Positions 4,751 through 55,571 of a stretch of 64,000 nt of DNA are shown here, one piece after another (the stretch's first letter is position 1; every line of letters begins with the position of its first letter). This DNA is from Candidatus Aminicenantes bacterium. Its GTDB lineage: Bacteria > Acidobacteriota > Aminicenantia > UBA2199. The DNA lies in assembly GCA_018262835.1 (NCBI GenBank), contig JADFDP010000003.1, positions 4,157-68,156 of the forward strand, written 5' to 3'. The notes under the pieces are model-generated. The model ran no database searches. It saw only the letters and a program-made list of their open reading frames with translations, and was not told where the DNA came from. A program made the position numbers and the translations under genes.

Positions 4751-4797
4751 GTAGGGGAGGGTTTCAAACCCTAGCAAGTTCCAATGACCCAAATAAA
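4751..4797. repeat. Fragment of the CA-arm repeat family (palindrome GGGTTTCAAACCC plus GTTCCAATGACCCAAA)
   Basis: GTAGGGGAGGGTTTCAAACCCTAGC resembles GTAGGGGTTCAATA...TATTGAACCCTTGC at 16680-16724. CCAATGACCCAAA matches the inner ends of the CA arms at 16646-16666 and 42384-42397. Confidence 0.4.
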
Positions 4798-4813
4798 AGT
4801 TCAACGGCACGGC

Positions 4814-5377
4814 CTATTCGCCACGTGGCTTCTTTGTCAAGAGCAGAATATTATCTATGACCTTCTTTAACCCTTCGTCCGTCGGCTGCCAGTGCAGCTT
4901 CCAGGAATAGATGTTGGCCGGCGCTGTCTCCAGCAAAACCGCGCAGCCGTCCATGCCGAAGAGGTCGTTCTCCGCCGGGATGCTTTTGAACTCTTCAGAA
5001 GTTATCAGTGTTTTGATTTGTGCCGTCTGTTCTTCGGAAAGTCGTGTTCGGACTGCTTCCACGCGATCGTGTGTTCCCGGATAAACGGTAAGTTGCCGGT
5101 GCGCCAGGTCAATCTCGACGGCTTGCTCGACGATGCCCATGGGTTGAACGAATAGCCGGACTCGGTCCTGGCTAAGCCGGTGCATATTTCTCTGTCGGCA
5201 ATAGGCCTCGATGATTTGGAGATGGAAGGTCATGAAGACCGGCTTGATATATGGAAAGATCAGCTCCGGCGGCCTTTGCTTAACGGCAGCTGTCTTGTTT
5301 ACTGCAAGCGGCGGAGGACACGCGCCACAGCCAAAAAGAACAATGGCAAACAACAGGACGAGCCGCACCGCCTTCAT
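4814..5377 (-). CDS. Putative lipoprotein, unknown function
   Basis: 187 aa. Signal peptide with lipobox-like LFGC. Its ATG overlaps the upstream gene's stop (ATGA on minus strand). Confidence 0.6.
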   Translation of the reverse strand: MKAVRLVLLFAIVLFGCGACPPPLAVNKTAAVKQRPPELIFPYIKPVFMTFHLQIIEAYCRQRNMHRLSQDRVRLFVQPMGIVEQAVEIDLAHRQLTVYPGTHDRVEAVRTRLSEEQTAQIKTLITSEEFKSIPAENDLFGMDGCAVLLETAPANIYSWKLHWQPTDEGLKKVIDNILLLTKKPRGE

Positions 5378-5763
5378 TTTATCTCCCTGTCAGCGAACCG
5401 TTTGCTTTTTTTGTTTTCAGAAACCCTGAATTTCACGATCTTGGCGACCAATGCCAGCGGCAGCGGCATGTCGATGGGAAACTGCACCGTGCCTTTGGAA
5501 GTTTTATATATCGACAATTCTTTTTTAAAAGCACGGACGCCGCTGGATGTGGGATAAAAACCGATATGTTTATTATAAGCGGCAAAATGAACCAAATTCC
5601 CTTTGAGAAAAAATGTTGGAATTTGATAACTGATCTTCTCCTCCGCTTCGGGCGCCGCGGCTTTTATCGCTGCCCGCAATCCATTGAGAATTGCCTGCAC
5701 CTCTTTGGGGAAGGTCATGATGTATTCATCGATCGAGTTAAAACTCTTTTTATTATTTTCCAT
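5374..5763 (-). CDS. DUF1801 (YdhG-like) domain protein
   Basis: MENNKKSFNSIDEYIMTFPKEVQAILNGLRAAIKAAAPEAEEKISYQIPTFFLKGNLVHFAAYNKHIGFYP is a typical DUF1801 pattern. The start is uncertain: ATG 5763 or GTG 5787. Confidence 0.7.
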   Translation of the reverse strand: MENNKKSFNSIDEYIMTFPKEVQAILNGLRAAIKAAAPEAEEKISYQIPTFFLKGNLVHFAAYNKHIGFYPTSSGVRAFKKELSIYKTSKGTVQFPIDMPLPLALVAKIVKFRVSENKKSKRFADREIK

Positions 5764-5817
5764 GATTTCTACTTTATTGCTTAACACATTTGCCTTGATA
5801 AATAAAGATTTTTACAG

Positions 5818-6022
5818 AAATTCCAAATCCCAAGCACTAAATCACAAACAAGCACCAAACACCAATCACCAAAACGATGAAAAGGTCCTAGGAAGGGCTT
5901 TTGTTTGGGACATTGGAATTTGGAACTTGGAATTTATTTGGAATTTGAGATTTGTGATTTGGAATTTACTTTCTTACTTGTTACGCGTTACGCGTCACGT
6001 GTCGCGTGTCACGATAGTTCGC
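5818..6022. repeat. Heptad-periodic hairpin element A: CA arm, loop, GT arm, plus ACGCGT-type heptad tail
   Basis: CA arm 5818-5875 (AAATTCC AAATCCC AAGCACT AAATCAC AAACAAG CACCAAA CACCAAT CACCAAA). GT arm 5903-5967 (..AATTTGG AACTTGG AATTTAT TTGGAAT TTGAGAT TTGTGAT TTGGAAT). Then ACTTTCTTAC, five heptads GYGTYRC (5978-6012) and GATAGTTCGC. Confidence 0.7.
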
Positions 6023-8200: not shown

Positions 8201-10972
8201 TTACTCCTTGACCGCGGTGGACACGGCGGCGGCACAGCGCGGGCACAGTTCGGGATGGGCGCCGGCGGCCGGAGCCGCCTCCACCCAGTTCCAGCAGCGC
8301 GGGCATTTGCGCCCGCTCGCTTTGCGCACCGTGATCTTTTCCACTTTTCCCGCGCCCACGTCCAGGGCGGCGGCGACCAGGATGGTCCTGAAAAGGCCGC
8401 TGTTTTCGCGCAGCAGCTTTTCGTTTTCCGCGGTTGCCGTGATCTCGATGCCGGCCTCCAGCGAATCGCCGATCAGCCTGGCGGCGCGGGCCGACTCAAT
8501 CTCCTTCAGGATGCGGTCGCGAACCGCCATGATATTTTCCCAGCGCTCTCCGTCCACCGCCCGGCGGTACGATTCATCGATTACGGGAAACCGCTCCAGG
8601 TGGATAGAGGACGCCTTGCCGGGATATTCGGGGAGGTAACCCCAGGCCTCTTCGCAGGTGAAGGAGAGGATGGGGGCCATGAGCAGCAGGGTCTCGTGCA
8701 GCAGGGTGAACACGGCCTGCTGGCTGGCGCGGCGCTGCGGATCGTTCGGCCGGTTGCAGTAGAGGTTGTCTTTCTGCAAATTGAGGTAAAAGGCGCTCAG
8801 GTCCACGGTGAAAAAGTTGAACATGGCGTGGAAAATGGTGTGGTATTCGAAATCGCGGTAGGCCTGGAGCACGCGGGCCTTCGTCTCCTGCAGCCGCTGC
8901 AGTATGTACAGGTCGGTTTCGCTCAGGCCGGCGAAAGGGACGCCGTCGCGCTGCGGCAGAAAGTCGGAAAGCACGCCGAGCATGAAGCGCCAGGTATTGC
9001 GGATCTTGCGGTAACTTTCGCTGAGGCGCAGGAGGTTCTCTTCGCCCAGGCGGACATCCTCCTGGTAGTTGACCATGGCCGCCCACAGGCGCAGGATCTC
9101 GGCCCCGCGGTCCTTGATGATGCTTTGCGGCTCAATGACGTTGCCCAGCGACTTGGACATGGCCCGGCCCTCCGCGTCAAGCACCCAGCCGTGGGTGATG
9201 ACCGTGCGGTAGGGCGCCGCCCCCATGGCGCTGACGCCGATAAGCAGCGACGAATGGAACCAGCCGCGGTACTGGTCGCCGCCTTCCAGGTACATGTCGG
9301 CCGGCCAGCGATGCCCGGCGCTGCGCTGAAGGATACCGTGCGACGAACCCGACTCGAACCAGACGTCGAGAATGTCTTTTCCTTTTGAAAAATCCTTGCC
9401 GCCGCATTTGGGGCAGACGGTGCCGACGGGCAGAAATTCAGCCGCTTCTTTCTGGTACCAGGAGTTGGACCCCAGGGCGGCAAAAGTCTTCTCCACGTTT
9501 TCGATCGCCGCGGGATCGAGCAGCGGTTCGGCGCATTTCGCGCAGAAAAATGCCGGCAGGGGGACGCCCCAGTCGCGCTGGCGCGAGATGCACCAGTCGG
9601 GGCGGTTTTCGATCATGCTGGCGATGCGTTCCTGGCCCCAGGCTGGTATCCAGTCCACTCCCTTGATGGCCTCCAGGGCTTTGCCCCGCAAGGCCGCCTG
9701 GTCCATGGCGATGAACCACTGAGCTGTGGCCCGGTAGATGACCGGTTTCTTGCAGCGCCAGCAGTGGGGGTAGGAATGTTTGATGGAGCTGGAGTGCAGC
9801 AGGCTGCCGTTCCGGCGCAGGTCCTCGACGATGCGTTCGTTGGCTTGGAAGACCTGCATGCCCTTGTATGGCCCGACGCTGTCGTCGAAGCGACCGTCGG
9901 GGCTGACCGGCGAATAGATGTCGAGCTTGTGGGCCACGCCGGCGTGGAAGTCGTCCTCGCCGTGCCCGGGAGCGGTATGCACGCAGCCGGTGCCCTGGTC
10001 CAGCAGAACGTAGTCGGTGTTGATCAGCAACGAATCGCGGTCGTAGAGCGGGTGGCGGGCCTTGCATCCTGCCAATTCCCCGCCCTTGAATTCCTTCAGT
10101 TTGCTGAAGGTTTCGTGGTTCAAAGCGGCAATGGCCGGCAGCAGGGATGAAGCGGCGATATAAAGCTCTCCCTTCATTTCGAACAGGGCATAATCGTATT
10201 CGGCATGCAGGGCGATGGCCAGGTTGGCCGGGATGGTCCAGGGGGTGGTCGTCCAGATCAGGACAAAAATATCGCGTCCGGCATATTCTTTCAAAAAAGG
10301 CGGAAGTTCGCGCAGGGGGAACTTCACCGTGATCGAGGGCGACGTGTGGTCGTCGTATTCGACCTCGGCTTCGGCCAAGGCGGTCTGGCAGGAAAGACAC
10401 CAGTAGACCGGGCGCTTCTGGCGGTAGACGTTGCCTTCCCTGACGAAGGAGTTGAAAAAGCGGATGACCGTGGCCTCGTAGGCCGGGTCCAGGGTGGTAT
10501 AGGGATTGTCCCAGGCGCCGAAGATTCCCAGGCGCTTGAAGTCGGAGCGCTGCAGATCCAGGAATTTTTCGGCATACAGCCGGCACTCCTCGCGTACCTG
10601 CAGCTGGCTCATGTTTTTCTTGCGCGAGCCCAGCTTCTGGTCCACCTTGTGCTCGATGGGCAGACCGTGGCAGTCCCAACCCGGGACGTAGGGGCTGTAA
10701 AAGCCTTCCATGGACTTGCTCTTGACGATGAAATCCTTGAGGATCTTGTTCAGGGCCGTGCCCAGGTGGATGTTGCCGTTGGCGTAGGGCGGGCCGTCGT
10801 GCAGGATGTACGGCTCCTGCCCGGCATGATTGTCCAGTATTTTTTCATAGATACCCGCCGCCTGCCATTTTTTCAGGGTCTCGGGCTCTTTCTGGCTGAG
10901 CTGGGCTTTCATGGGAAAGTCGGTGCGCGGCAGGTTTAACGTATCCTTCCAGTCCATTTTTTTTTCCGACAT
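8201..10972 (-). CDS. ileS: Isoleucine--tRNA ligase (type 1, C-terminal zinc finger)
   Basis: 923 aa from ATG 10972 (GGAG 9 nt upstream). PPYANGNIHLGT (HIGH region), AMSKSLGN (KMSKS region), CPRCWNW...CPRC C-terminus. Confidence 0.97.
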   Translation of the reverse strand: MSEKKMDWKDTLNLPRTDFPMKAQLSQKEPETLKKWQAAGIYEKILDNHAGQEPYILHDGPPYANGNIHLGTALNKILKDFIVKSKSMEGFYSPYVPGWDCHGLPIEHKVDQKLGSRKKNMSQLQVREECRLYAEKFLDLQRSDFKRLGIFGAWDNPYTTLDPAYEATVIRFFNSFVREGNVYRQKRPVYWCLSCQTALAEAEVEYDDHTSPSITVKFPLRELPPFLKEYAGRDIFVLIWTTTPWTIPANLAIALHAEYDYALFEMKGELYIAASSLLPAIAALNHETFSKLKEFKGGELAGCKARHPLYDRDSLLINTDYVLLDQGTGCVHTAPGHGEDDFHAGVAHKLDIYSPVSPDGRFDDSVGPYKGMQVFQANERIVEDLRRNGSLLHSSSIKHSYPHCWRCKKPVIYRATAQWFIAMDQAALRGKALEAIKGVDWIPAWGQERIASMIENRPDWCISRQRDWGVPLPAFFCAKCAEPLLDPAAIENVEKTFAALGSNSWYQKEAAEFLPVGTVCPKCGGKDFSKGKDILDVWFESGSSHGILQRSAGHRWPADMYLEGGDQYRGWFHSSLLIGVSAMGAAPYRTVITHGWVLDAEGRAMSKSLGNVIEPQSIIKDRGAEILRLWAAMVNYQEDVRLGEENLLRLSESYRKIRNTWRFMLGVLSDFLPQRDGVPFAGLSETDLYILQRLQETKARVLQAYRDFEYHTIFHAMFNFFTVDLSAFYLNLQKDNLYCNRPNDPQRRASQQAVFTLLHETLLLMAPILSFTCEEAWGYLPEYPGKASSIHLERFPVIDESYRRAVDGERWENIMAVRDRILKEIESARAARLIGDSLEAGIEITATAENEKLLRENSGLFRTILVAAALDVGAGKVEKITVRKASGRKCPRCWNWVEAAPAAGAHPELCPRCAAAVSTAVKE

Positions 10973-11172
10973 GGTATGGGCTCCGGTATGATATGAAGCC
11001 CTATTGTCGCTCATTTCCACCGTTTAGTCAATGGAATTCGGCTTAATTGTTTTCCCGTGGGGTTTAAAATCCCGGATCCCTGGAGGCCCGGCCGGCCGCG
11101 GCTGGGGGAATCTGCTATAATGGGAACTTCGGGCGGCTCGACGCCGTTTGGGAAGTGTAAAAGGAGGTGCGC

Positions 11173-11799: not shown

Positions 11800-11875
11800 A
11801 TTGCCTCCATGCTCGCTCAGTCCTGATTTTGTAGCACAAAAGCTCGACGCCGTAAAGAATGGAAAGCGAACATGC

Positions 11876-11969
11876 GTGATTCGTAATTCGTGATTCGAAA
11901 ACGCAATGAATCGATCGATTGCTTTTTCTCCTGCGAATTATGAATTACGTTTTACGAATTACGAAATCA
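11876..11969. repeat. Heptad-periodic hairpin element D
   Basis: Left arm GTGATTC GTAATTC GTGATTC GAAAACG. Loop contains the perfect palindrome AATCGATCGATT and CTTTTTCTCCT. Right arm GAATTAT GAATTAC GTTTTAC GAATTAC GAAATCA. Confidence 0.65.
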
Positions 11970-12029
11970 GCGGCTTTTGCATTCGCCATGTTTTTTTTCT
12001 ATAATGCGGTTTATCCCTAACGAGGTGTC

Positions 12030-16597: not shown

Positions 16598-16917
16598 AAA
16601 AAAATCACAAATCCCGAGCACCAAGTTCCAAACAAGCTCCAATCATCAATGACCCAATGCCCAAACGAGGAAAATGACGTAGGGGTTCAATACGAGATCG
16701 ATTGAAATCATATTGAACCCTTGCATGCAAAAACCATGCCTTGGGGTAGGGAACGCAGATCTGCGTTCCCTACAGAAAAAAATCTCTAATGTCTTTGATT
16801 GGGACATTGGAATTTGGAACTTGGAATTTATTTGGAAATTGTATTTTGTGACTTGGAATTTATCTTTCTTGCGCCATGCGCCTTACGCCGTCAACCGTAC
16901 GCCGAGTTTAGATTTCG
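16598..16917. repeat. Heptad-periodic hairpin element B with nested palindromes and CGCC-type heptad tail
   Basis: CA arm 16601-16666 and GT arm 16794-16860 (TGGAATT TGGAACT TGGAATT ...). The core holds a 10-bp inverted repeat, GGGTTCAATA (16683-92) / TATTGAACCC (16711-20), and a perfect 28-bp palindrome at 16746-16773. Tail: TATCTTTCTTG, then CGCCATG CGCCTTA CGCCGTC AACCGTA CGCCGAG, then TTTAGATTTCG. Confidence 0.7.
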
Positions 16918-24880: not shown

Positions 24881-24970
24881 AGTTCGCGTGTCGCTGCGCG
24901 GCGTTAAAAAAATTCTTTTTATCGTTTTGCACGAAAATCGAATCCCGAACCGCGAAAATCGGCGTAATTC
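24881..24970. repeat. Heptad-periodic element K (partial)
   Basis: AGTTCGC GTGTCGC..., then ATTCTTTTTAT, then an arm in which CGAA recurs at 24932, 24939, 24946 and 24953 (ACGAAAA TCGAATC CCGAACC GCGAAAA), then TAATTCC. Confidence 0.5.
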
Positions 24971-26276: not shown

Positions 26277-26383
26277 CCGTGTACGGCAGACGGATGACGG
26301 CTTACGGCAGGAAAGGCAATACCACGAATCACTTAGCGCTCTCGTCTTTTTCTTCCCTTCAGCCGTGAGCCGCCGCATGCCAA
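26277..26383. repeat. Heptad-periodic hairpin element E between convergent genes
   Basis: Left arm CCGTGTA CGGCAGA CGGATGA CGGCTTA CGGCAGG. CTTTTTCTTCCC tract. Right arm TCAGCCG TGAGCCG ... Confidence 0.6.
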
Positions 26384-35100: not shown

Positions 35101-35210
35101 TGGACGAGGCCGTGGAAGAAGCGCGGCGCTGCCTGCACTGCGACCGCAACCAGGCCCCGGAAAAGGAAAAGACAGCCGGCGAAACGGTGGCCATCGAGGC
35201 CATGCTGTGA
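32136..35210 (+). CDS. NuoF/HydB-like flavoprotein fused to GltD/NfnB-like NAD(P)H-FAD oxidoreductase
   Basis: 1024 aa. N-terminal [2Fe-2S] (ICGGGACIS..ETGCMGPCELGP). FMN/NADH site GLRGRGGAGFSTGMKW. N3 cluster ESCGQCVPCR. Then CSAGVC..CVNACP and CGRVCPAFCERKC. Two Rossmann motifs: VAVVGAGPAGLACA and VVVVGGGSTAMDAA. Confidence 0.9.
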   Translation: MNKRLDVLICGGGACISSHSHELKKKLIEEIEKNGLSAEINLVETGCMGPCELGPVMVVYPDGSFYIQLDEKNAAEIVQEHFLKGRPVQKHLWQAPEARKIVEQKKQIPFFEKQLKIVLSNCGRIDPENVGEYIAQRGYEALGTALTQMTPEQVIDIITKSGLRGRGGAGFSTGMKWKFAYDSKSDQKYILCNADEGDPGAFMDRAVLEGDPHAVLEGMALAGYAIGADKGYIYVRAEYPLAIERLNHAIAQAREMGLLGKNIFETSFHFDVELRMGAGAFVCGEETALMASVEGLRGQPRPKPPFPAVKGLWGKPSVINNVETLATIRHILLNGWEWFSAIGTEKSKGTKVFALSGKVTNTGLVEVPMGITLGELVFDIGGGIPGGKAFKAAQTGGPSGGCIPAKYLNSPLDYESLKALGSIMGSGGLIVLDEDSCMVNMAKYFLEFSLEESCGQCVPCRVGLKQMYDLLERITSGSGTMADLEKLESLAYTVRATSLCGLGQAAPNPVISTIKYFKHEYLEHIQDKKCSAGVCAALFAAPCVNACPAGVDAASYVSHMGDGRLREAYFQHMQNNPFPIVCGRVCPAFCERKCSRGKYDQAVAIREVKRLFADWAIGEGLGFAPPLQTHKEKVAVVGAGPAGLACAFYLTRLGYQPVVFEALKVAGGMMKVGIPDFRLPKDKLQAEIAVIEKAGVQIKLNSPVANIDELTEKGFAAVFVGSGAHQAQKLNIEGSSLKGVMSGIDFLREANLGKKINIGNDVVVVGGGSTAMDAARLARRLGAGNVRLVYRRTRTEMPAQLEELVGAEEEGVEMDFLVNPLQIIGRAGKVSGIHCIKTELADFDDSGRRRPVPVGGSEYTIRASFIIYCLGQKLSLGLTGGTLNLDRRGHIAVDPRTMATSAAGVFAGGDAVNPSTVIESVAQGRLAAVSIDRYFGRAGRLFDQPRQVVDVHYDEEAYLKTIERKEPHLEDAEKRVADLALEVSRGLTLDEAVEEARRCLHCDRNQAPEKEKTAGETVAIEAML

Positions 35211-35217
35211 GGAAGCC

Positions 35218-35676
35218 ATGAAGCGCGAAAAAATATTGCAGAACTACAAGCCCTCGGGCGACAACCTGCTGGGCATCCTGCACGACATCCAGAACGCCAG
35301 CGAAGAGCATTACCTGACCGACGCCGACCTGCGGGCCGTGGCCGATTACCTTGGCCTGGCCTACAGTTTCGTGTACGGCGTGGCCACCTTCTATACCATG
35401 TACAGCCTTGAGCCGCGGGGCAGGTACCTCATCCGTGTCTGCCAGTCCCCGCCCTGCCACCTGCTGGGCTCGACCACCATTTCCAGGGAGCTGATGCGGC
35501 TGCTGGGGATCGGTTTCGGCGAGACCACCGCCGACAGGCGCTTCACCCTGGAAATGTCGTCCTGTCTGGGCGTGTGCGGCGTCGCCCCGGCCATGATGGT
35601 CAACGACCAGGTTTACGGCAACCTGACCCCCGAGCTCATCGCGGAAGTCATCGCGGGGTTGCGGAGGGGAAAATGA
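35218..35676 (+). CDS. NuoE/FdsG-like [2Fe-2S] subunit (module 2)
   Basis: 152 aa. CQSPPCHLLG...SSCLGVCGVAPA. Confidence 0.9.
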   Translation: MKREKILQNYKPSGDNLLGILHDIQNASEEHYLTDADLRAVADYLGLAYSFVYGVATFYTMYSLEPRGRYLIRVCQSPPCHLLGSTTISRELMRLLGIGFGETTADRRFTLEMSSCLGVCGVAPAMMVNDQVYGNLTPELIAEVIAGLRRGK

Positions 35677-37271
35677 GCATTTACCGCACGCACATCCTGC
35701 TGCCGGTCGATGAGGGAACCGTCCAGGCCGGGGTCTTCGAGGTCAAGCGCCGGCTGGAGAGTGAATTGCAAGCGAGAAAACTTCAAAAGGAAATAAAGGT
35801 CCTGGAAAGCGGCAGCGTCGGTCTGGTCGGCAAAGGCGTCATCCTGGCCGTCTATCCCGACCGCATGTACTATTTTGGAGTCAAGGAAAACGACATTCCC
35901 CGCATCATCGAAGAGCATTTGCTCAAAGGGCGGATCGTCGCCGGCCTGGCCCATGCCCCGGTGGCGGCCATGGCCGCGGACCAGACCGGCGCCCGCGTCG
36001 GGCTGACCCGCGAGCAGCGGCGCGTGGTCCTGGACAAGGCCTGGACCGTGGACCCGAAAAACATTCACGAAGTCCTGGCCGCCGGCGGCTACCGGGCCCT
36101 GGAAAAAATATTCAGCGACAAGCTCAGCCCGGAACAGGTGATCGAGGAAGTGAAGAGATCGGGGCTGCGCGGCCGCGGCGGCGCCGGATTCCCGACCGGC
36201 ATGAAGTGGGAGTTCACGCGCAAGGCGGGGGGCCCGGAGAAATACGTCATCTGCAACGCCGATGAAGGCGAACCCGGCACCTTCAAGGACCGGCTGATCC
36301 TCGAGGGCGACCCGCACAAGCTGATCGAGGCCATGACCATCGCCGCCTACGCCATCGGCGCCGGTCGCGGTTTCATCTACATCCGCGGCGAATACGGCCT
36401 GTCCATCGAACGCGTGCAAAAGGCCATCGACCAGGCCCGGGAGTTCAGTCTGCTGGGCAAAAACATCCTGGAAACGGGCTTTTCCTTCGAGCTGGAGATC
36501 AAGAAGGGGGCCGGCGCCTATGTCTGCGGCGAGGAAACGGCGCTGATCGAATCGCTGGAAGGCAAGCGCGGCAACCCGCGCGTCAAGCCGCCCTACCCGG
36601 TCACGCACGGCTTATGGCAGAAGCCCACGGCAGTCAACAACGTCGAAACCCTGGCCAATATCCCGGCCATCATCAACAACGGCGCCGGCTGGTTCCGCAA
36701 GATCGGCACCGACAAGTGCCCGGGGACCAAGGTCTTCACCATCCTCGGCCATGTCGAATATCCGGGGCTGATCGAGACCGACATGGGCACGCCCCTGCGC
36801 GAGATCATCTTTTCTTTCGGCGGCGGCATCAAGGGCGGCAAAAAATTCAAGGCCGCTTTGCTCGGCGGCGCTGCCGGGGTGTTCCTGTCCGAGCCCCTGC
36901 TGGATGTGAAGATGGATTTCGAGAACCTGAAGGAAAACAAGGCGGTGCTGGGTTCCGGGGCCGTGCTGGTCATGAACGAGGACACCTCGATCGTGGACAT
37001 GCTCTTTTCCATCGCCAAGTTCTTCGCCCACGAGTCGTGCGGCCAGTGCTCGCCCTGCCGCATCGGCACGCAGCAGATACTCCAGATCATCTACCGCCTG
37101 CGCCAGGGCGGCGGCAAGGCGGGCGACCTGGAAACGCTGCTGCAGCTGGCCGAGACCATGTTCAGGTCGTCGCTCTGCCCCCTGGGCCAGTCGCTGGTCA
37201 TGCCGGTCAAGAGCGCCCTGGAGAATTTTAAAGACGAATTCGCGTTGGCCATCAGCCAAGCTGAGAAATAA
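35673..37271 (+). CDS. NuoF/FdsB-like NADH-binding flavoprotein (module 2)
   Basis: 532 aa from MSIYRTHILL (ATGA overlap). GLRGRGGAGFPTGMKW and ESCGQCSPCR. The N-terminal thioredoxin-like fold lacks Cys ligands (ESGSVGLVGKG). No C-terminal ferredoxin extension. Confidence 0.9.
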   Translation: MSIYRTHILLPVDEGTVQAGVFEVKRRLESELQARKLQKEIKVLESGSVGLVGKGVILAVYPDRMYYFGVKENDIPRIIEEHLLKGRIVAGLAHAPVAAMAADQTGARVGLTREQRRVVLDKAWTVDPKNIHEVLAAGGYRALEKIFSDKLSPEQVIEEVKRSGLRGRGGAGFPTGMKWEFTRKAGGPEKYVICNADEGEPGTFKDRLILEGDPHKLIEAMTIAAYAIGAGRGFIYIRGEYGLSIERVQKAIDQAREFSLLGKNILETGFSFELEIKKGAGAYVCGEETALIESLEGKRGNPRVKPPYPVTHGLWQKPTAVNNVETLANIPAIINNGAGWFRKIGTDKCPGTKVFTILGHVEYPGLIETDMGTPLREIIFSFGGGIKGGKKFKAALLGGAAGVFLSEPLLDVKMDFENLKENKAVLGSGAVLVMNEDTSIVDMLFSIAKFFAHESCGQCSPCRIGTQQILQIIYRLRQGGGKAGDLETLLQLAETMFRSSLCPLGQSLVMPVKSALENFKDEFALAISQAEK

Positions 37272-37285
37272 CAAAGGAGGCATGC

Positions 37286-40009
37286 ATGTCGGAAATGGTA
37301 ACCATCAGTATTGACGGCAAGGAGATCCGGGCGGCCAAGGGAGACAACCTGTTGCGAGTGGCCCGGGACAACGGCTTCGACATTCCCGGGCTGTGCTTTT
37401 ATGAAAAAATAACCCCCACCGGCGACTGCCGGCTGTGCATGGTCAAAATAGAAGGCCGGCCCGGCATGGTCGCCTCCTGCCTGGTCAAGGTCGATGCGGG
37501 GATGAAGGTGACCGCTTTCGATCCACAGCTGGAGGAAACCCGCAAAATGCTGGCCGACGTGCTCCTCTCCGAGCACAACGACGACTGCATCACCTGCGAG
37601 CGCGACGGCGACTGCGGCATCCAGGACCTGGCCTTCCGCTACGGCCTGGACACGCCCAAGCGCACTTTTGCCCCGGTCTGGAAGGAGATCCCCCAGGCTC
37701 CGGACAGCTCGGCGCCGGTGTTGTTCTATGATTCCAGCAAGTGCATCAAGTGCGAGCGCTGCGTCAAGGCCTGCACCGAGATCCAGGGCAAGGGCGTCTT
37801 AAGCATGGCCCAGCGCGGCATCCACAGCCACGTCGTGGCCGGCACCGGCCAGTGGTCGGGCTCGGAGTGCGACGGCTGCGGCGAGTGCGTGCAGGCCTGC
37901 CCGGTCGGCGCCCTGATGGAAAAGCCCGTCTACGGCCAGAAGCTGAAGAAAAAGGACGTGCAGAGAAAGGTGGTCACCACCTGTCCTTACTGCGGCGTCG
38001 GCTGCCAGATGGAGCTCTGGGTCAAGGATGACAAGATCGTCAAGGTCAAAGGCGCCGACTCGGTGCCCAACTACGGCTCCACCTGCGTCAAGGGACGGTT
38101 CGGCCTGGATTTCGTCCAGCGTCCCGACCGCCTGACCAGGCCGCTAATACGCAAGGAGGGCAAGCTGGTTGAATCTTCCTGGGACGAAGCGCTGGAGCTG
38201 GTGGCCAGCAAACTCGGCGCCATCAAGAAGGAACACGGGCCGGCCGCCCTGGCCGGGCTGTCGTCGGCCAAGTGCACCAATGAGGAGAACTTCGTCTTTC
38301 AGAAGTTCGTGCGCACCGCTTTCGGCTCCAACAACGTCGACCATTGCGCCCGTTTGTGCCACGCCTCCACCGTGGCCGGTCTGGCCCGCTCCTTCGGCTC
38401 CGGCGCCATGACCAACTCCATCGAGGAGCTGGAGCATGCCGAAGTCATCCTGGTCACGGGCTCCAACACCACCGAGACCCACCCGGTCATCGCCACGCGC
38501 ATCAAGAAAGCCGTGCTTTTCCACGGCGCCAGGCTGATCGTCATCGACCCGCGCCGGATCGACCTGGTCAAATACACCGAACGATACGGCGGCATGTGGC
38601 TGCGCCAGAAGAACGGCAGCGACGTGGCCTGGGCCAACGGCCTGATGAACGTCATCATCGAGGAAAAACTGCTCGCCGATGAGTTCGTCAAGACGCGCAC
38701 CGAGGACTTTGAGGCCATGAAGAAAGTCGTGTCCGGTTACACCCCGGACAAGGTGGAAAAGATCACCGGCATACCCGCCGAGCAGCTGCGCCGGGCCGCG
38801 CGCATGTACGCCGGCGCCGCCAAGGGCTCGATCGTCTACTCCATGGGCATCACCCAGCACACCACCGGCACCGACAACGTCATGTCCATGGCCAACCTGG
38901 CCATGCTCACCGGCAACCTGGGCAAGGAGTCGGCGGGCGTCAACCCGCTGCGCGGCCAGAACAACGTTCAAGGGTCGTGCGACATGGGCGCCCTGCCCAA
39001 TGTTTTTCCCGGTTACCAGGCCGTGACCGACGCGCCCGCCCGCGAAAAATTCGAAAAGGCCTGGAACGTCAAGCTCGACGACAAGGTCGGCCTGACCATC
39101 GTCGAGATCATGCACCAGGCTGCCGAGGGCAAGATCAAGGGGCTGTACATCATGGGCGAGAACCCCATGGTCTCCGACCCCGACCTCGGCCATGTCAAGC
39201 AGGCGCTGGAAAAGCTGGATTTCCTGGTGGTGCAGGACATCTTCCTGACCGAAACGGCGCAACTGGCCGACGTGGTGCTGCCGGTGGCCTCGTTCGCCGA
39301 GAAGCAGGGGACCTTCACCAACACCGAGCGCCGCAGCCTCTGGGTGGAGAAGGCCGTTCCCGCCCCCGGCGAAGCCCGCATCGACTGGGAGATCATCCGC
39401 GACGTGAGCACGCGCATGGGCTACAAGATGGAATACGGCAGCGTGGAAGACATCATTAACGAGGTCAACAAGCTGGTGCCGCAGTATGCCGGCATCACCT
39501 ATAAACGCCTTATGAACGGCGACAAGCTGCAGTGGCCCTGCCCCAACCCCGAGCACCCGGGGACGAAATTCCTGCACCGCGACAAGTTCACCCGCGGCCT
39601 GGGCAAGTTCTTCGCCATCGATTATATCCCGCCCGCGGAGTGGCCCGACGCCAAGTACCCCTTTCTGCTCTCCACCGGCCGCCTGCTCTACCATTACCAC
39701 ACCGGCAGCATGAGCCGGCGCACCGCGGCCCTGCCCCAGTACGTGCCCGGGCCGTTCATGGAGATGCATCCCCAGGACATGAAAAAATTGGGCATCACCA
39801 GCGGCGAGCAGGTCAAGGTCTCATCGCGGCGCGGCTCGATCCAGACCGAGGCGCGGGAGAGCGAGCGGGTCGATGTGGGCTCGGTCTTCATCACCTTCCA
39901 TTTCGCCGAGGCGGCGGCCAACATGCTGACCAACGACGCCTTCGACCCCATCGCCAAGATCCCCGAGTTCAAGGTGGCTGCCTGCCAGATAGAAAAAATC
40001 AACCAATAA
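37286..40009 (+). CDS. fdhA: Formate dehydrogenase catalytic subunit, NuoG-like Fe-S N-terminus plus molybdopterin domain (Cys-type)
   Basis: 907 aa. [2Fe-2S] CFYEK..CRLCMV..SC; H-ligated cluster HNDDCITCERDGDC; two 4Fe-4S motifs; CPYCGVGC. Active-site stretch VDHCARLCHASTVAGL has TGC (38357-38359) where Sec enzymes have TGA. Confidence 0.93.
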   Translation: MSEMVTISIDGKEIRAAKGDNLLRVARDNGFDIPGLCFYEKITPTGDCRLCMVKIEGRPGMVASCLVKVDAGMKVTAFDPQLEETRKMLADVLLSEHNDDCITCERDGDCGIQDLAFRYGLDTPKRTFAPVWKEIPQAPDSSAPVLFYDSSKCIKCERCVKACTEIQGKGVLSMAQRGIHSHVVAGTGQWSGSECDGCGECVQACPVGALMEKPVYGQKLKKKDVQRKVVTTCPYCGVGCQMELWVKDDKIVKVKGADSVPNYGSTCVKGRFGLDFVQRPDRLTRPLIRKEGKLVESSWDEALELVASKLGAIKKEHGPAALAGLSSAKCTNEENFVFQKFVRTAFGSNNVDHCARLCHASTVAGLARSFGSGAMTNSIEELEHAEVILVTGSNTTETHPVIATRIKKAVLFHGARLIVIDPRRIDLVKYTERYGGMWLRQKNGSDVAWANGLMNVIIEEKLLADEFVKTRTEDFEAMKKVVSGYTPDKVEKITGIPAEQLRRAARMYAGAAKGSIVYSMGITQHTTGTDNVMSMANLAMLTGNLGKESAGVNPLRGQNNVQGSCDMGALPNVFPGYQAVTDAPAREKFEKAWNVKLDDKVGLTIVEIMHQAAEGKIKGLYIMGENPMVSDPDLGHVKQALEKLDFLVVQDIFLTETAQLADVVLPVASFAEKQGTFTNTERRSLWVEKAVPAPGEARIDWEIIRDVSTRMGYKMEYGSVEDIINEVNKLVPQYAGITYKRLMNGDKLQWPCPNPEHPGTKFLHRDKFTRGLGKFFAIDYIPPAEWPDAKYPFLLSTGRLLYHYHTGSMSRRTAALPQYVPGPFMEMHPQDMKKLGITSGEQVKVSSRRGSIQTEARESERVDVGSVFITFHFAEAAANMLTNDAFDPIAKIPEFKVAACQIEKINQ

Positions 40010-40022
40010 AAGAGGAGGAACA

Positions 40023-40880
40023 ATGGAGTATGATTGCAAGGGCCCGGCCGTGGTGGCCGCGGACCTCAACGAGAACATCTGTGTAAAGAAAACCACGAAC
40101 AACTGGTTCAAACTGTTGGTGCTGGGCATCCTGGCCGGCGCTTACATCGGCTTCGGCGGCGAGCTTTCGAACATGGTCGGTCATGATGCGGCGACCTTCG
40201 TCGGAGCAGGCCTGGCCGCCTTCATCAAGGGCGCGGTCTTTTCCGTCGGCCTGATGCTGGTGGTCATCGCCGGGGCGGAGTTGTTCACCGGCAATACCAT
40301 GATCACCATGTCGGTGCTGGACGGCAAGGCCAAGTTCAGCGGCTTGCTGTACAACTGGTCGATCGTCTATGTTGCCAACTTTATCGGCTCCATGCTGATG
40401 GTTTATGTCATGTTCGGCAGCGGCCTGCTCGCCGGCCCCAACGTGGCCGTGGGTGCCTCCGCCCTGAAAACGGCCGCCGCCAAAGCGAGCCTTGATTTCG
40501 GGCCGGCTTTCTTCCGCGGCATCCTCTGCAACTGGCTGGTCTGCCTGGCGGTGTGGATGGCATTGACCTCGCGCAACACCATCGGCAAGGTCTGGGCCAT
40601 CTTCTTCCCGATCATGGCCTTCATCGCCTCGGGTTTCGAGCACAGCGTCGCCAACATGTATATCATCCCCATCGGCATCATGCTCAAGGGCGTGAACGAG
40701 GTCGTGGCGGCCGCCACCGCCGCCGGCCTCACACCGGAGAAGCTGGCCAATGTCAGCTGGTACGGCTTTGCGGTCAAGAACCTGATACCGGTCACCCTGG
40801 GCAACATCGTGGGCGGCGGCTTTTTCGTCGCCACGCTGTACTGGCTGGCCTACGTCCGCAAGTCCAAGAAGGCCGCCTAG
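40023..40880 (+). CDS. focA: Formate/nitrite transporter family channel
   Basis: 285 aa. FNT signatures GAELFTGN and FEHSVANMY. Confidence 0.9.
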   Translation: MEYDCKGPAVVAADLNENICVKKTTNNWFKLLVLGILAGAYIGFGGELSNMVGHDAATFVGAGLAAFIKGAVFSVGLMLVVIAGAELFTGNTMITMSVLDGKAKFSGLLYNWSIVYVANFIGSMLMVYVMFGSGLLAGPNVAVGASALKTAAAKASLDFGPAFFRGILCNWLVCLAVWMALTSRNTIGKVWAIFFPIMAFIASGFEHSVANMYIIPIGIMLKGVNEVVAAATAAGLTPEKLANVSWYGFAVKNLIPVTLGNIVGGGFFVATLYWLAYVRKSKKAA

Positions 40881-40909
40881 GTCACTTCAACGTTATCTTG
40901 ATTTATCCG

Positions 40910-40942
40910 GGGCCGTTCCCGCCGGGGACGGCCCTTTTTTTT
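40910..40942 (+). terminator. Rho-independent terminator of the formate dehydrogenase operon
   Basis: GGGCCGTTCCC-GCC-GGGGACGGCCC stem (11 bp, one G-U) followed by T8. Confidence 0.8.
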
Positions 40943-42331: not shown

Positions 42332-42490
42332 AAAATTCCAAATTCCAAGCACCAAATCACAAATAAATTCCAAGTTCCAAATTCCAATGACCCAAACAAA
42401 GTCACCAGGGGCTTTTTATCTTAGTTTTGGTCATTGGGTCATTGGTCCTTGGTGCTTGTTTGGAATTTGGGATTTGTGTTTTGGAATTTA
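42332..42490. repeat. Heptad-periodic hairpin element C
   Basis: CA arm AAATTCC AAATTCC AAGCACC AAATCAC AAATAAA TTCCAAG TTCCAAA TTCCAAT GACCCAA. GT arm ..TCATTGG TCCTTGG TGCTTGT TTGGAAT TTGGGAT TTGTGTT TTGGAAT. Confidence 0.7.
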
Positions 42491-48988: not shown

Positions 48989-49305
48989 GGCCGTGTTCAC
49001 CGGCAGCCGTCAAAAAATTGCAGCTTTGGTATCTCTACCTGATCCGCTGCGGCGACGGCAGCGTCTATACCGGGGTCTCCAATGATGTATCCCGGCGCCT
49101 GGCCGAACATCGGAGCGGCAAAGGGGCCCGCTACCTGCGCGGCCGCGGGCCGCTGCTCCTGGCCCGCAAGGTCCGTGTCGGCAGCCACGGCGATGCCCTC
49201 AGGGCCGAACGCCGGGTGAAGCGCCTGCGGCGTGCGCGCAAGGAGAAACTGATCGCGGGGAAGATCAGGTTAAAGGACTTGATCAAGAAAAACAAGCTAC
49301 AGTGA
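48985..49305 (+). CDS. GIY-YIG nuclease superfamily protein (UPF0213-like)
   Basis: WYLYLIRCGDGSVYTGVSNDVSRRLAEHRSG. ATGA overlap with the S41 stop. Confidence 0.85.
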   Translation: MRPCSPAAVKKLQLWYLYLIRCGDGSVYTGVSNDVSRRLAEHRSGKGARYLRGRGPLLLARKVRVGSHGDALRAERRVKRLRRARKEKLIAGKIRLKDLIKKNKLQ

Positions 49306-49390
49306 CAAGTGATGAGTGACAAGGAACCGCAATAGTTCGCACCCTGGCCGCTCCTCGTCACTTGTTACTGGTCACTCGCCACTTTAGTTC
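49302..49390. repeat. Heptad-periodic hairpin element F between convergent genes
   Basis: GTGACAA GTGATGA GTGACAA GG. Loop with CCGCAATAGTTCGCACC. TCGTCAC TTGTTAC TGGTCAC TCGCCAC, then TTTAGTTC. The first heptad contains the GIY-YIG stop codon. Confidence 0.7.
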
Positions 49391-53434: not shown

Positions 53435-54056
53435 TCCATTTTATTTTCAGGATCAAAGTCAATTTGTAAATGAATATGTCGCTGACCCTGACACGGCAGG
53501 CATCCTCTCGGCATATATCGAACCAGAACAAACTGAGCTTTTCCAAAATCCGGCAGAGCGTGATGATGGCAGCGGGACCTTGATCCGGGCAGGCGGCCAG
53601 CGCTTCGCTCAATTCCTTGTGCAAGTCGGCGATGCGGCCTTCATAATACCAGAAGTTACCGGTTCTCAGGATCCCCAACTGGCTGGTTTCGCGCAAAATC
53701 GCTTTCTTGACATCTTTTTCCCGCAACAGATCCAGTTGAAAGCTGACGAATTCGCGCAATTGCTTTTCCGGCGTGATCAGTTCAGGGGACATTTTTTCGC
53801 AAACGGGAGCTTTTTCCGTGAACATGAGCAGGTATTGCAGAAGGCGGCCGGTATTTTCCTCCCGTTCTTTGTTGCGGAAGAAATGCTTGAGCTGGGCGGG
53901 AGAGATTGGCGTGGTTGCGTGCCAGGTCGCCGTCTCGTTTTGGTTGCGCGCCGAATTGTCAATATGGCTCCGGATGCTTTCCTTTAAAATCTCCACTTTC
54001 TTAGAGTCGAGGCAATCTTCCTTGGCGATGATCTCGGAAATTTTCATGTTTTGCAT
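53421..54056 (-). CDS. Hypothetical protein
   Basis: 211 aa with no recognisable motif. Lower GC than neighbours. Overlaps the downstream GNAT start by 14 nt. Confidence 0.55.
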   Translation of the reverse strand: MQNMKISEIIAKEDCLDSKKVEILKESIRSHIDNSARNQNETATWHATTPISPAQLKHFFRNKEREENTGRLLQYLLMFTEKAPVCEKMSPELITPEKQLREFVSFQLDLLREKDVKKAILRETSQLGILRTGNFWYYEGRIADLHKELSEALAACPDQGPAAIITLCRILEKLSLFWFDICREDACRVRVSDIFIYKLTLILKIKWNGYE

Positions 54057-54304
54057 TTATCCCGATCGGCGCGGCTGGCACGGCACGAACGCGAGATCGA
54101 ATGGTTGCGATTTTATAGCACAAAGCTTCCAATAATTCAAGGGACCCGAGGTCGTGAGCCACAGCGATTCTATGGTAGGGGGCACGGCGCCATTCCGGGA
54201 TACGTGCCATGTCCTTTCGGTCGACGCGCAATCAAGAGGAATGATTGTTTTTAGTTGGGACTTCTGGTAACATTTTCGTTTGTCGAATGCGGCGGGCGTG
54301 TACC

Positions 54305-55450
54305 ATGAGCGACGAAAAAAAAAGATTCTACTTCATTGACCAGTTCAGGGGCTGGGCCGTGTTGTTCATGGTCGAGACGCACGTGGTCAACGCCTTCCTG
54401 CTGCCCGGGTTGCACTCTTCCCTGGCATACAAGGGCCTCGATTTCTTCAATGGCCTGATCGCGCCAGCCTTTGTGTTCATCGCCGGTTTTTCTTTCGCCA
54501 TCGTGGCCGAGCGCAAGTGGGACGATTTCCTGCGACCCGGCACGGTCTTCTGGAAGCAATTCATGCGCTGCCTGCAAATCCTGCTGATCGGCTACCTGCT
54601 CCACGTCCCCCGCTTTTCCCTGCGCTGGCTGTTTCATACTTTAAAATGGAATGAAAAGCATATTTTCTGGGGAGTTGACGTGCTGCACGCCATCGCCGTC
54701 TCCCTGCTCCTTTTGTTGCTGTTTATCCCGCTCTGGCGGCGCAAGGAACGCTATTTCGTGTTCCTGGCCGCGACTGGCCTGACCGTCTCGCTGCTGACGC
54801 CGCTGTTGTTCGCGCTGCCGGTCGAAAAGGTCTTGCCCTGGGCATTCTCCGGCTACCTGAAGCGCCTGCCTTATTCGCAATTCCCCCTGTTTCCCTGGCT
54901 GGGCTATGCTTTCATGGGAGCGGCCGTGTCGCGGCTCTGGCAGGAGGCGCGGAAGCAGGCGGGCGAAGAACGTTTCTTCCGCCTGCTTTTCGGCGCCGGG
55001 GCTTCCCTGGTGGCGGTCTTTCTGATCATCATCCTGCAGCCATTCACCACCGTGGTCCTTGGCACGTTCAACCCGGCCAAGCCGCTGTTCTTTTTCCTGA
55101 AACTGGGGCTGGTGATGATGCTCCTCTCGTTGCTCTGGCATTGGGAACAGAAAAAAGGGAACCGCCCGGCTCCGGTGACCGCGGTCGGGCAAGAGTCGCT
55201 GCCGGCCTACGCCTTCCACATAGCGGTCATCTACGGCGGCTTTTCCGGCCCTTATGGACACAGCCTGGCTTACCTGATCGGCCCGAACCGTTCCTGGGTC
55301 GAGGTCGGGCTGATGGCACTGGCCCTGATCCTGGTCACGGCCGCGCTGTCGCTCGGCTGGCATTGGCTTAAGAAGAACCGGCCCAAGTTCGCCAAGCGGG
55401 TATTTTGGTGTGGTGTAATTACAATGTTACTATTTATGGTCTTTCGATAA
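54305..55450 (+). CDS. DUF1624 / heparan-alpha-glucosaminide N-acetyltransferase-like membrane protein
   Basis: Start at MSDEKKRFYFIDQFRGWAVLFMVETH, the typical N-terminal motif. About 10 transmembrane segments. Confidence 0.8.
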   Translation: MSDEKKRFYFIDQFRGWAVLFMVETHVVNAFLLPGLHSSLAYKGLDFFNGLIAPAFVFIAGFSFAIVAERKWDDFLRPGTVFWKQFMRCLQILLIGYLLHVPRFSLRWLFHTLKWNEKHIFWGVDVLHAIAVSLLLLLLFIPLWRRKERYFVFLAATGLTVSLLTPLLFALPVEKVLPWAFSGYLKRLPYSQFPLFPWLGYAFMGAAVSRLWQEARKQAGEERFFRLLFGAGASLVAVFLIIILQPFTTVVLGTFNPAKPLFFFLKLGLVMMLLSLLWHWEQKKGNRPAPVTAVGQESLPAYAFHIAVIYGGFSGPYGHSLAYLIGPNRSWVEVGLMALALILVTAALSLGWHWLKKNRPKFAKRVFWCGVITMLLFMVFR

Positions 55451-55474
55451 TGAGAGAATCGAGATCGGTTCTAA

Positions 55475-55571
55475 GTGACAAGTGACGAGTGATGAGGGAA
55501 GAAAAACCGCATTCGTTCGAAACATTGCTGTTCCTTGTCACTTGTTACTGATCACTTGTTACTATAGTTCG
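55475..55571. repeat. Heptad-periodic hairpin element G (paralogue of F) between convergent genes
   Basis: GTGACAA GTGACGA GTGATGA GGG, then AAGAAAAACCGCATTCGTTCG, then TTGTCAC TTGTTAC TGATCAC TTGTTAC, then TATAGTTCG. Confidence 0.7.

Follow-up and report, generated by a model that had tools for sequence, protein, structure and literature searches.

Palindromic heptad-repeat elements in the intergenic regions of a Candidatus Aminicenantes genome

The 64,000 nt stretch of Candidatus Aminicenantes DNA analyzed here (contig JADFDP010000003.1, positions 4,157 to 68,156 of the forward strand; hereafter the window) carries intergenic elements composed of degenerate tandem 7 nt repeats (heptads), many of which form the two arms of a hairpin and whose repeated word differs from locus to locus. 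On balance, we regard these elements as palindromic non-coding repeats similar to REPINs or miniature inverted-repeat transposable elements (MITEs), built from heptanucleotide simple sequence repeats (SSRs) and shaped by slippage and concerted evolution. Heptanucleotide repeats are already familiar from cyanobacteria and Xanthomonas, and the elements are a lineage-wide version of them that evolves fast; it is unlikely that they represent a novel type of machinery. Within the window and among related genomes, we found dispersed palindromic families with heptad stems, persistence of sites together with turnover of their sequences, insertions and deletions of whole heptads, cassette-like replacement of elements, and coupled change of the two arms.

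Heptad arrays are confined to intergenic gaps

The original prediction, made from the sequence of the window, listed intergenic inverted repeats with a 7 nt period. We scanned the whole window for self-matches at fixed lags, counting regions with at least 16 of 21 matches and using composition-preserving block shuffles as the control. At lag 7, 11 regions were observed against a mean of 0.1 in the shuffles, while lags 2, 4-6, 8-10 and 12-13 gave zero regions at the same threshold. In support, Tandem Repeats Finder (TRF) reported period-7 arrays at 5849, 5913, 5979, 11875, 11934, 16807, 16868, 26283, 30559, 30602, 42333, 42427, 42459 and 55473. The heptad arrays are thus confirmed, and the comparison with shuffled controls, which had been proposed as a test of the prediction, is significant. 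Most of the predicted loci held up, but those at 24932 and 28551 were too weak by themselves: the arrays at 24932-24962 and 28548-28577 score 13/21 and 14/21, respectively, neither being significant alone, and at a threshold of 13/21 the other lags yield 4-19 regions.

As predicted, all arrays are located within the gaps of a gene map of the window based on the G+C content of third codon positions. Nonetheless, the elements blur gene ends, because the stop codons of two genes are inside arrays. An RluD-like gene has its last eight codons and its TGA stop (5995-5997) in the CGTNACG array of element E1b, and the TGA stop of a GIY-YIG gene (49303-49305) is part of the first GTGACAA heptad in the 5′ arm of element E9. 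The elements are listed below in window coordinates.

4776-4799, + strand: fragment of an AAATTCC-family arm, loop-proximal end (AAGTTCCAATGACCCAAATAAAAG), which adjoins the 3′ end of the gene at 4814-5377 (− strand) and aligns with the arms of E1, E3 and E8.
5817-5967, no strand assigned: E1a, AAATTCC-family long hairpin with its 5′ arm at 5817-5876 and 3′ arm at 5899-5967, identified by TRF (period 7), lag-7 score and arm homology; fold of -45 kcal/mol on either strand.
5969-6021, + strand: E1b, single unit consisting of the pyrimidine tract CTTTCTTAC (5969-5977), a GYGTYRC/CGTNACG array (5978-6013) and ATAGTTCG (6014-6021), identified by TRF and with the top lag-7 score in the window (18/21).
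11869-11969, − strand (the orientation of the model): E2, core-bearing hairpin of the word class GTRATTC with arms at 11874-11897 and 11934-11965 and core at 11896-11935; found as inverted repeats and as an nhmmer core match; covariance model score 90.2 bits (−) versus 51.5 (+); fold z -3.5/-2.0.
16601-16861, no strand assigned: E3a, AAATTCC-family long hairpin with arms at 16601-16670 and 16794-16861, identified by TRF, fold and arm homology.
16864-16917, + strand: E3b, single unit consisting of CTTTCTTGC, an NNNCGCC array (16871-16904) and AGTTTAGATTTCG, which abuts the MscL stop codon at 16919; TRF 16868-16889, lag-7 score 15/21.
24932-24962, + strand: E4, weak array with CGAA every 7 nt (13/21, not individually significant).
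26277-26383, + strand: E5, hairpin of the word class CGGNNNA, which fills a convergent stop-to-stop gap, with its 5′ arm at 26281-26311 and 3′ arm at 26358-26381 (TRF); the loop, with AGGAAAGGCAAT...CGAATC, aligns with the core, and a pyrimidine tract (26343-26357) precedes the 3′ arm; z -2.3 (+) and -3.2 (−).
28548-28577, + strand: E6, weak short unit, TTTTCTTC plus about 2.5 TCGAACN heptads (14/21).
30547-30633, − strand: E7, single unit without hairpin, consisting of CGAACTAT (30547-30554), an RTRACGC array (30555-30582), the purine tract AGGAAGAAAAG (30583-30593) and an NGTTCGA array (30601-30628); the two arrays are non-complementary; lag-7 scores 18 and 17, TRF; exact ATAGTTCG on the − strand.
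42333-42489, no strand assigned: E8, AAATTCC-family long hairpin downstream of the enolase gene with arms at 42333-42401 and 42420-42489, identified as inverted repeats, by TRF and by arm homology; fold of -61.8 (+) and -53.3 (−).
49302-49390, + strand: E9, core-bearing hairpin of the GTGAYRA class, which fills a convergent gap, with its 5′ arm at 49302-49324, core at 49318-49356 and 3′ arm at 49353-49382, followed by TTTAGTTC (49383-49390); ATAGTTCG at 49332 in the core; nhmmer match, covariance model score 71.2 bits; z -3.9 (+) and -5.6 (−).
55473-55571, + strand: E10, core-bearing hairpin of the GTGAYRA class, which fills a convergent gap, with its 5′ arm at 55473-55497, core at 55496-55536 and 3′ arm at 55533-55563, followed by ATAGTTCG (55564-55571); TRF; best nhmmer core match (E 4e-8), covariance model score 92.7 bits (+) versus 48 (−); z -4.7 (+) and -2.3 (−).

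The 8-mer ATAGTTCG occurs in four exact copies in the window (6014+, 30547−, 49332+ and 55564+), each of which is in or beside an element. The ends of the open reading frames agree with the four placements predicted to lie exactly between convergent stop codons (16593/16919, 26272/26384, 49305/49401 and 55450/55573). Elements occupy 4-5 of 7 convergent gaps, 4 of 16 tandem gaps and 2 of 9 divergent gaps (6 of 25 for the non-convergent gaps together). Convergent gaps are only weakly enriched in elements (Fisher p 0.17, or 0.03 when the fragment at 4776 is counted).

At least two families have spread as whole units

The window holds at least two homologous families of elements that spread as whole units. 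The first is a hairpin of ~100 nt with a conserved, orientation-specific apical core of ~40 nt, which is present in E2 (on the − strand), E9, E10 and probably E5. Loop alignment revealed the same core in hairpins of L004, L034, L006 and L009 (L numbers denote loci of other genomes or contigs used for comparison), and its approximate consensus is GGAAGAAAA-C.GCAATAGTTCGA..A.TTGCTG.TCC. An nhmmer profile built from seven cores retrieved an eighth copy, at L029 42-81, on which it had not been trained. A covariance model of core and arms gave 90-96 bits for seven of its eight training copies, E9 being the lower one, and about 50 bits in the reverse orientation, in which the arms alone match. Conservation of the core is 60-70%, in contrast to the turnover of the arms. 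In this family, G, T and A at heptad positions 1, 2 and 4 are fixed in register with the core across word classes, and the purine and pyrimidine tracts represent opposite sides of the top of the stem. The shared scaffold of a pyrimidine tract and a TAGTTCG-like motif noticed in the original prediction is therefore borne out by the alignment of the loops to one core and by the restriction of ATAGTTCG to the elements. These alignments show that the scaffold reflects homology rather than convergence and that the elements are copies of a few dispersed families.

The second family is the AAATTCC hairpin of ~150 nt, whose arm has a fixed order of variant heptads in E1a, E3a, E8 and the fragment at 4776. 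The arms of E1a, E3a and E8 and the fragment 4776-4799 align with copies in L030, L008 and L006 as one sequence of ~70 nt, and the 3′ arms of E1a and E3a have 39 identical bases in common. The same order of variant heptads and this identical stretch indicate that the AAATTCC element spreads as a unit.

The single (half) units E1b, E3b, E7 and E6 are composed of a pyrimidine tract, heptads and ATAGTTCG, and look like the 3′ half of a core-bearing element. Likewise, the NGTTCGA arrays look like expansions of the GTTCGA of the core and end motif.

The loop of E3a contains two nested hairpins, one at 16682-16720 (GGGGTTCAATACGAGATCGATTGAAATCATATTGAACCC) and the other at 16746-16773 (GTAGGGAACGCAGATCTGCGTTCCCTAC), the latter being a GTAG-tagged palindrome (GTAGGG...CCCTAC) similar to repetitive extragenic palindromic (REP) sequences. 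Similar GTAGGGG...CCCCTAC palindromes are found in relatives downstream of the RluD-like gene (L030 4352-4380 and 4447-4474). The GTAG-tagged palindromes are a second, classical REP-type family in the clade, which hints at a REP-associated tyrosine transposase (RAYT) somewhere in the genome.

Repeat-armed palindromes in this clade are not confined to a period of 7, because a hairpin of ~150 nt with arms of 11 nt repeats (AGGGAAGANNN / NNNTCTTCCCT) is located directly upstream of the IleRS promoter in five relatives. It is absent from the orthologous window gap (11021-11166), and its 11 nt unit includes GGGAAGA, as in the core of the heptad elements. The copies are as follows.

L004 9907-9966: 11-nt-repeat hairpin.
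L005 9813-9932: 11-nt-repeat hairpin.
L006 9846-9982: 11-nt-repeat hairpin.
L029 5743-5863: 11-nt-repeat hairpin.
L034 2465-2610: 11-nt-repeat hairpin.

Sites persist in relatives while their sequences turn over

In a scan of species-representative genomes with IleRS, the window fell among metagenome-assembled genomes (MAGs) mostly labelled Candidatus Aminicenantes (OP8), the best matches having 76-83% amino acid identity, and synteny with the best-matching Aminicenantes MAGs is kept across ~20 kb. Period-7 arrays are as dense in close Aminicenantes loci (15.9 per 100 kb) and in loci of Pyrinomonadaceae and other Acidobacteriota (16.4) as in the window (17.2), but they are scarce in low-GC Aminicenantes (0.8), other phyla (1.7) and unrelated metagenome contigs (2.2). 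The repeated words are diverse, with 36 canonical words in 60 arrays of the clade and 43 words in 93 arrays.

Conservation in close relatives, another test that the original prediction had named, gave a split answer: the sites are conserved, but the sequences are not. The site between the genes of a histidine kinase (HK) and a cupin is occupied in 8/9 relatives and the MscL site in 6/6. The gap between the MscL gene and the gene of a 501 aa protein (g15088) contains a GGCGTAN array and an AAATTCC hairpin in the window, GTGAAAA in L004, GACGTTA in L005, and CGTAATT in L006, L009 and L029; at the MscL-proximal position corresponding to E3b, heptad hairpins are present in L004, L005, L006, L009 and L029. 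The HK-cupin gap harbors the GTAATTC hairpin E2 in the window, a GTGACNA hairpin with an identically oriented copy of the core in L004 and L034, and other arrays in L005, L006 and L029. At the E1b site, GCGTGAY arrays are found in L006, L009, L034 and L030.

E2 is located between the conserved divergent promoters of the cupin and HK genes. The HK promoter (TTGCAT...TATAAT, 11976-12005) and the cupin promoter (TTTACT-17-TGcTACAtA with an extended -10, about 11800-11868) are conserved in L004-L009, L029 and L034, and the interval between the -35 boxes has been replaced by different heptad elements.

Two closely related pairs exhibit the changes directly. L005 and L029, whose IleRS genes are 90% identical in nucleotides, share an orthologous CGAATCA array of 13 versus 6 heptads, which differ by one gap of 49 nt (7x7) between flanks that are ~93% identical. 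Between L040 and L041 (Pyrinomonadaceae, IleRS 92% identical), an ACTGACC array is swapped for an AATCGGC hairpin between conserved flanks, and L052 has an AATCCGC hairpin at the orthologous site. These Pyrinomonadaceae elements (L040 ~9890-9975, L041 ~9860-9975 and L052 3729-3872) directly follow a canonical terminator (CCCGAACCATC...GATGGTTCGGG then TTTTTA). Pyrinomonadaceae also carry recurrent GTGATNA arrays without the core.

Pattern searches beyond these genomes returned chance matches. Among the at least 120 metagenome matches listed for the core pattern GGAAGA-N11-12-GTTCGA-N4-TTGC, only random ones were found, and 1 of 120 listed had a marginal period-7 flank (14/21) that looks like chance. 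In viral contigs, the GTGAYRA-plus-core pattern had no match, and the AAATTCC pattern matched only unrelated A+T-rich contigs, including a giant-virus MAG. The contig of this MAG in IMG/VR, which is A+T-rich, carries a long AAATTCY heptad array (L210 6950-7230) unrelated to the Aminicenantes element.

The two arms of core-bearing hairpins change together

An inverted-repeat search recovered the arms at 42333-42489 and 11872-11965, and on either strand E9, E10, E2 and E5 form more stable folds than their dinucleotide-shuffled versions (z -2.0 to -5.6). The claim that the arms are complementary when G-U pairs are allowed was accordingly confirmed as to hairpins at most loci, but the arrays at 30547-30633, 5978-6013 and 16871-16904 have no partner arm, the second of them being self-complementary and folding on itself, and E7 as a whole folds no better than shuffles (z +1.06 and +0.39). 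Nor does G-U pairing pick a strand. The better fold is on the + strand for E10 and E2 and on the − strand for E9 and E5, and in about 30 hairpins the arm mismatches are balanced between the two possible G-U strands, with many transversions. A strand-specific RNA reading was rejected, as mismatches are balanced, transversions are common and energies favor the + or − strand depending on the element. Partnerless arrays, the unfolded E7, the absence of a favored strand and the balanced wobble mismatches contradict selection on structure as a general rule, which the original prediction had offered as one explanation. The two convergent gaps of the window that lack heptads fold no better than shuffles, which indicates that no alternative structure takes their place.

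In many cases, the variant heptads of one arm are not in register with those of the other. When eight core-bearing hairpins were aligned, 11 of 21 stem pairs were found to have changed on both sides, and 86% of the cells pair versus 73% in shuffles (0 of 500 reach this value) and 26-51% after the partner has been shifted by one to three columns. Thus, the two arms change together and pairing is preserved across different words. These changes come from essentially two word classes, and the covariation therefore represents few independent events.

Relation to known repeats and structures

Long simple sequence repeats (LSSRs) are said to occur in free-living organisms with large genomes. Heptanucleotide units are the most abundant of them in most genomes surveyed, for which polymerase slippage has been proposed (Mrazek, Guo and Shah 2007, as relayed in PMC4679880 and PMC4692102). 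The elements resemble LSSRs in 7 nt tandem iteration beyond chance (11 versus 0.1 regions) and in length change by whole units (49 nt between L005 and L029). Unlike LSSRs, the arrays are degenerate (70-90% between units), are paired in inverted orientation around conserved cores and are members of dispersed families, and there is no length polymorphism within the population of the window (6 further assemblies).

Among the closest counterparts are the short tandemly repeated repetitive (STRR) sequences of cyanobacteria, intergenic heptamer repeats that form hairpins, for example between hupS and hupL, and for which transcript stabilization or termination has been proposed (PMC2670836). Calothrix contains three STRR heptamers (PMC4692102). 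The elements share with STRRs tandem 7 bp intergenic units, several words per genome and the ability to form hairpins, but they reside in Acidobacteriota/Aminicenantes with 60% G+C rather than in filamentous cyanobacteria, their words are different and far more diverse, and they have a conserved non-repeat apical core and a ATAGTTCG end motif. The loop-proximal heptads in the 3′ arm of E8 (42427-42453) read TTGGTCA, which we take to be the word of Calothrix STRR2, probably by coincidence. GGGAATC in Xanthomonas and GGGGAYT in Nostoc form intergenic heptamer arrays, sometimes as inverted pairs, which occupy the same gene gaps across related species with variable length and sequence (PMC4692102); unlike the dozens of words without G-tracts in our clade, they represent one G-rich word per genome with G-quadruplex potential. 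TAACTGA in Beggiatoaceae, cyanobacteria and Bacteroidetes and the heptanucleotides of Geobacter metallireducens are abundant intergenic heptamer direct repeats (PMC4679880, PMC2700814), but each consists of one word, and they are mostly direct repeats just upstream of start codons (TAACTGA) or fixed units of 4-5 copies (Geobacter) and are not palindromic.

The small dispersed repeats (SDRs) of cyanobacteria are reportedly nested in heptamer repeats. REP, BIME and REPIN, NEMIS, ERIC and SDR sequences are short dispersed intergenic palindromes that favor the 3′ ends of genes, have inverted halves around a conserved linker, and are nestable and present in many copies (PMC3116915, PMC3733652). The heptad elements are like the REP/BIME/REPIN type in genomic behavior. 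In contrast to REPs and REPINs, they lack the GTAG/CGTC tag and end in ATAGTTCG/CGAACTAT, the sole GTAGGG...CCCTAC palindrome being the separate one at 16746-16773; their stems are tandem repeats rather than a fixed palindrome of 20-40 nt, and the window genes include no RAYT. As to MITEs, palindromy extends over the whole of each element, the ends of E1a, E3a and E8 display no visible duplication, and no transposon is found among the window genes.

The elements are neither intrinsic terminators nor CRISPRs as usually defined: a scan with the terminator consensus lists none of them, and their stems are 20-60 bp long and A+T-rich for the genome; the units are 7 nt, contiguous and in inverted arms, rather than repeats of 24-48 nt with unique spacers. 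No exact match to a described repeat family was found, and Rfam gave none. At the gathering score, tRNA-Met was the sole Rfam match in the whole window, and L005, L006, L009, L040 and L041 gave no match, with only chance hairpin matches at E <= 1. In the literature we found no description of such elements for Acidobacteria or Aminicenantes. The earlier statement that they match no known class was nevertheless too strong, as STRR hairpins (PMC2670836) and the inverted heptamer arrays of Xanthomonas (PMC4692102) had been described. The novelty lies in the lineage, in how many words share a single homologous scaffold, and in the evidence that both arms evolve in concert.

Origin of the elements

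The 7 nt register probably comes from slipped-strand replication that favors heptanucleotide units, as in the LSSR phenomenon. New variants would spread along an array via slippage and may be carried to the other arm either through correction templated across the palindrome or because pairing is selected for. Slippage and cross-arm transfer together would yield one layout with many words and a word that drifts in concert. Copies could be dispersed to new sites by a mobilizer like that of REPINs and RAYTs or of MITEs, or by recombining with one another; in the loop of E3, the nested insertion fits such dispersal. For the most part, the elements would be selfish or neutral and occupy safe intergenic DNA, 3′-3′ junctions above all, and action as a transcript-end hairpin or insulator is a possible side effect. 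Overall, the original interpretation is partly supported. Its suggestion of a generating mechanism with a 7 nt register is borne out by the difference of seven heptads between L005 and L029, the 36 words in 60 arrays and the published heptanucleotide surveys.

Several observations weigh against this account. Pfam scans detected no transposase or RAYT gene among the window genes and no target-site duplication is evident, so that the case for mobility comes solely from where the copies are located. That slippage prefers 7 nt units has been proposed in the literature, as relayed in PMC4679880 and PMC4692102, but is not an established mechanism. Sites persist across species with only 75-83% IleRS identity, and they could need the elements; the conservation of the core amid arm turnover suggests some constraint on the core. 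Moreover, 6 further independent assemblies carry an identical E2, and E9 has one single-nucleotide polymorphism (SNP) only, in two other assemblies, and slippage is therefore slow on the population time scale. A hypervariable contingency locus was likewise rejected on the invariance of E2 and the single SNP of E9.

The strongest alternative, which we nonetheless consider rather unlikely, is that the elements are functional hairpins under selection, such as bidirectional terminators or stabilizers of mRNA 3′ ends between convergent genes and insulators or cruciform spacers between promoters, with heptads being merely the cheapest way to build or rebuild a long stem. This would fit the four exactly filled convergent gaps (4-5/7 convergent versus 4/16 tandem and 2/9 divergent), the stable folds with z down to -5.6, the covarying arms, the occupation of sites in nearly all relatives despite sequence turnover, and the U-rich tails after E9 and E10; STRR hairpins have also been proposed as stabilizers or terminators (PMC2670836). 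However, the convergent enrichment is weak at the p values given above, E2 and E7 lie on the upstream side of both promoters that flank them, no such hairpin is formed by E7 or the single arrays, neither strand has a consistent advantage, and wobble mismatches are evenly split. In addition, three different Pyrinomonadaceae heptad elements come just after a canonical terminator, where no further one is needed, ordinary terminators with a GC-rich stem and a T-run exist in the genome (e.g. 40909-40935), and the terminator scan did not pick up the elements. Because of the weak convergent bias, the sites upstream of promoters or after a canonical terminator, and the elements that do not fold, we give preference to selfish or neutral occupants whose hairpin effects are incidental, ahead of dedicated terminators or insulators. 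Site persistence and the conserved core keep the functional reading alive, and a terminator or insulator role, as far as sequence comparison goes, is unproven.

A purely local origin, in which each array arose in place by slippage noise without dispersal, kinship or function and palindromic DNA promoted slippage or template switching, is somewhat less probable still and has already been weakened. LSSRs with units of 5-11 nt (LSSR5-11) are reportedly a sign of a general propensity for expansion. Local slippage, also a published proposal as relayed in PMC4679880 and PMC4692102, is compatible with the 36 words among 60 arrays, with copy numbers that change in steps of whole heptads, with the partnerless arrays E1b, E3b and E7, and with the 11-nt-period hairpin in relatives, whose period is not 7. 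It conflicts with the homologous loop cores at unlinked loci and in different species, the same order of variant heptads in AAATTCC arms at three loci with the identical stretch of 39 nt, the confinement of ATAGTTCG to elements or their edges, and the swapping of whole elements between conserved flanks.

Also improbable is an active, sequence-independent process, driven by an enzyme as opposed to ordinary replication slippage, that writes or renews 7 nt repeats symmetrically on both palindrome arms around a recognized core in high-GC Aminicenantes and Pyrinomonadaceae. This might proceed by hairpin-templated synthesis or through a dedicated mobilizer that rebuilds the arms at every insertion. 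If so, words would be replaced wholesale while period, layout and pairing persist, and the process might account for the dominance of heptanucleotides among bacterial long repeats.

It is quite doubtful that the heptads form a binding array for a protein with a footprint of ~7 nt, either a cold-shock-domain or S1-type protein on single strands or a DNA-binding protein reading GTNA, with the core as a second site like IHF in BIME-1. The fixed G, T and A at positions 1, 2 and 4 and the recurrence of core-free GTGATNA arrays in Pyrinomonadaceae would suit such a protein, and Csp, S1 and CsrA have been proposed as binders of TAACTGA repeats (PMC4679880). Most words, including AAATTCC, CGGNNNA, GGCAAAA, AATCGGC and TCAGATT, have nothing in common with GTNA, and no candidate protein was identified. 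Least credible of all are structured small RNAs or cis-regulatory RNAs of a specific family: stable folds, stem covariation and the orientation-specific core would be expected of them, but there is no Rfam match at the gathering score in the window or the five loci of relatives, with chance sub-threshold matches only at E <= 1, no strand is consistent, the elements are found in every kind of intergenic context, and the stem sequence is free with variant heptads not kept in register. A three-frame stop-codon pad using the TGA/TAA of GTGA/GTAA words was rejected by inspection, because AAATTCC, NGTTCGA and AATCGGC have no stop codon on either strand.

The predominance of heptanucleotides among the long repeats of most bacterial genomes surveyed has been a question since 2007. 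The role of STRR hairpins is a second question, and this clade is a cleaner system for both. It offers many words, a recognizable non-repeat core that marks homologous copies, and orthologous sites across a ladder of related MAGs, and gives direct evidence for whole-heptad slippage and concerted change of two arms. Heptad elements abound in high-GC Aminicenantes and Pyrinomonadaceae but hardly occur in low-GC Aminicenantes, and this patchiness is a comparative handle on the polymerase, repair or mobilization factor responsible. In practical terms, the elements are easily mistaken for structured RNAs.

Genomic setting

The source genome is high in G+C (~60%), and GTDB places Candidatus Aminicenantes in Acidobacteriota. 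Proteins of the window have identical counterparts on wetland metagenome contigs, and the gene content is that of an ordinary chromosome of anaerobe type, with HypF, rubrerythrins, desulfoferrodoxin, enolase, IleRS, Lgt, MscL and an RluD-like synthase. An operon at 31234-40880 encodes NuoE-like, NuoF-like/GltD-like and molybdopterin formate-dehydrogenase-like subunits and FocA, with FdhD and MobA further on, and HypF is encoded at the start of the window (176-2473); together, these look like formate- and hydrogen-linked anaerobic metabolism. The promoter scan placed a promoter-like site at 30696-30724, with E7 upstream of it. On the + strand, 3′ of the formate/nitrite transporter gene, there is an intrinsic terminator with a G+C-rich stem of 12 bp followed by T8 (40909-40935), a textbook example which indicates that the source organism uses canonical terminators.

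The 792 nt gap at 4022-4813 contains no convincing open reading frame, the longest candidates encoding 85 aa (3963-4220, − strand) and 59 aa (4375-4554, − strand), and the latter had no Pfam match. This gap is A+T-rich, with 42% G+C at 4001-6000 versus ~60% in the genome, is flanked by an AAA_14/DUF4143 ATPase gene and the gene of a 187 aa protein, and may be a remnant of foreign DNA.

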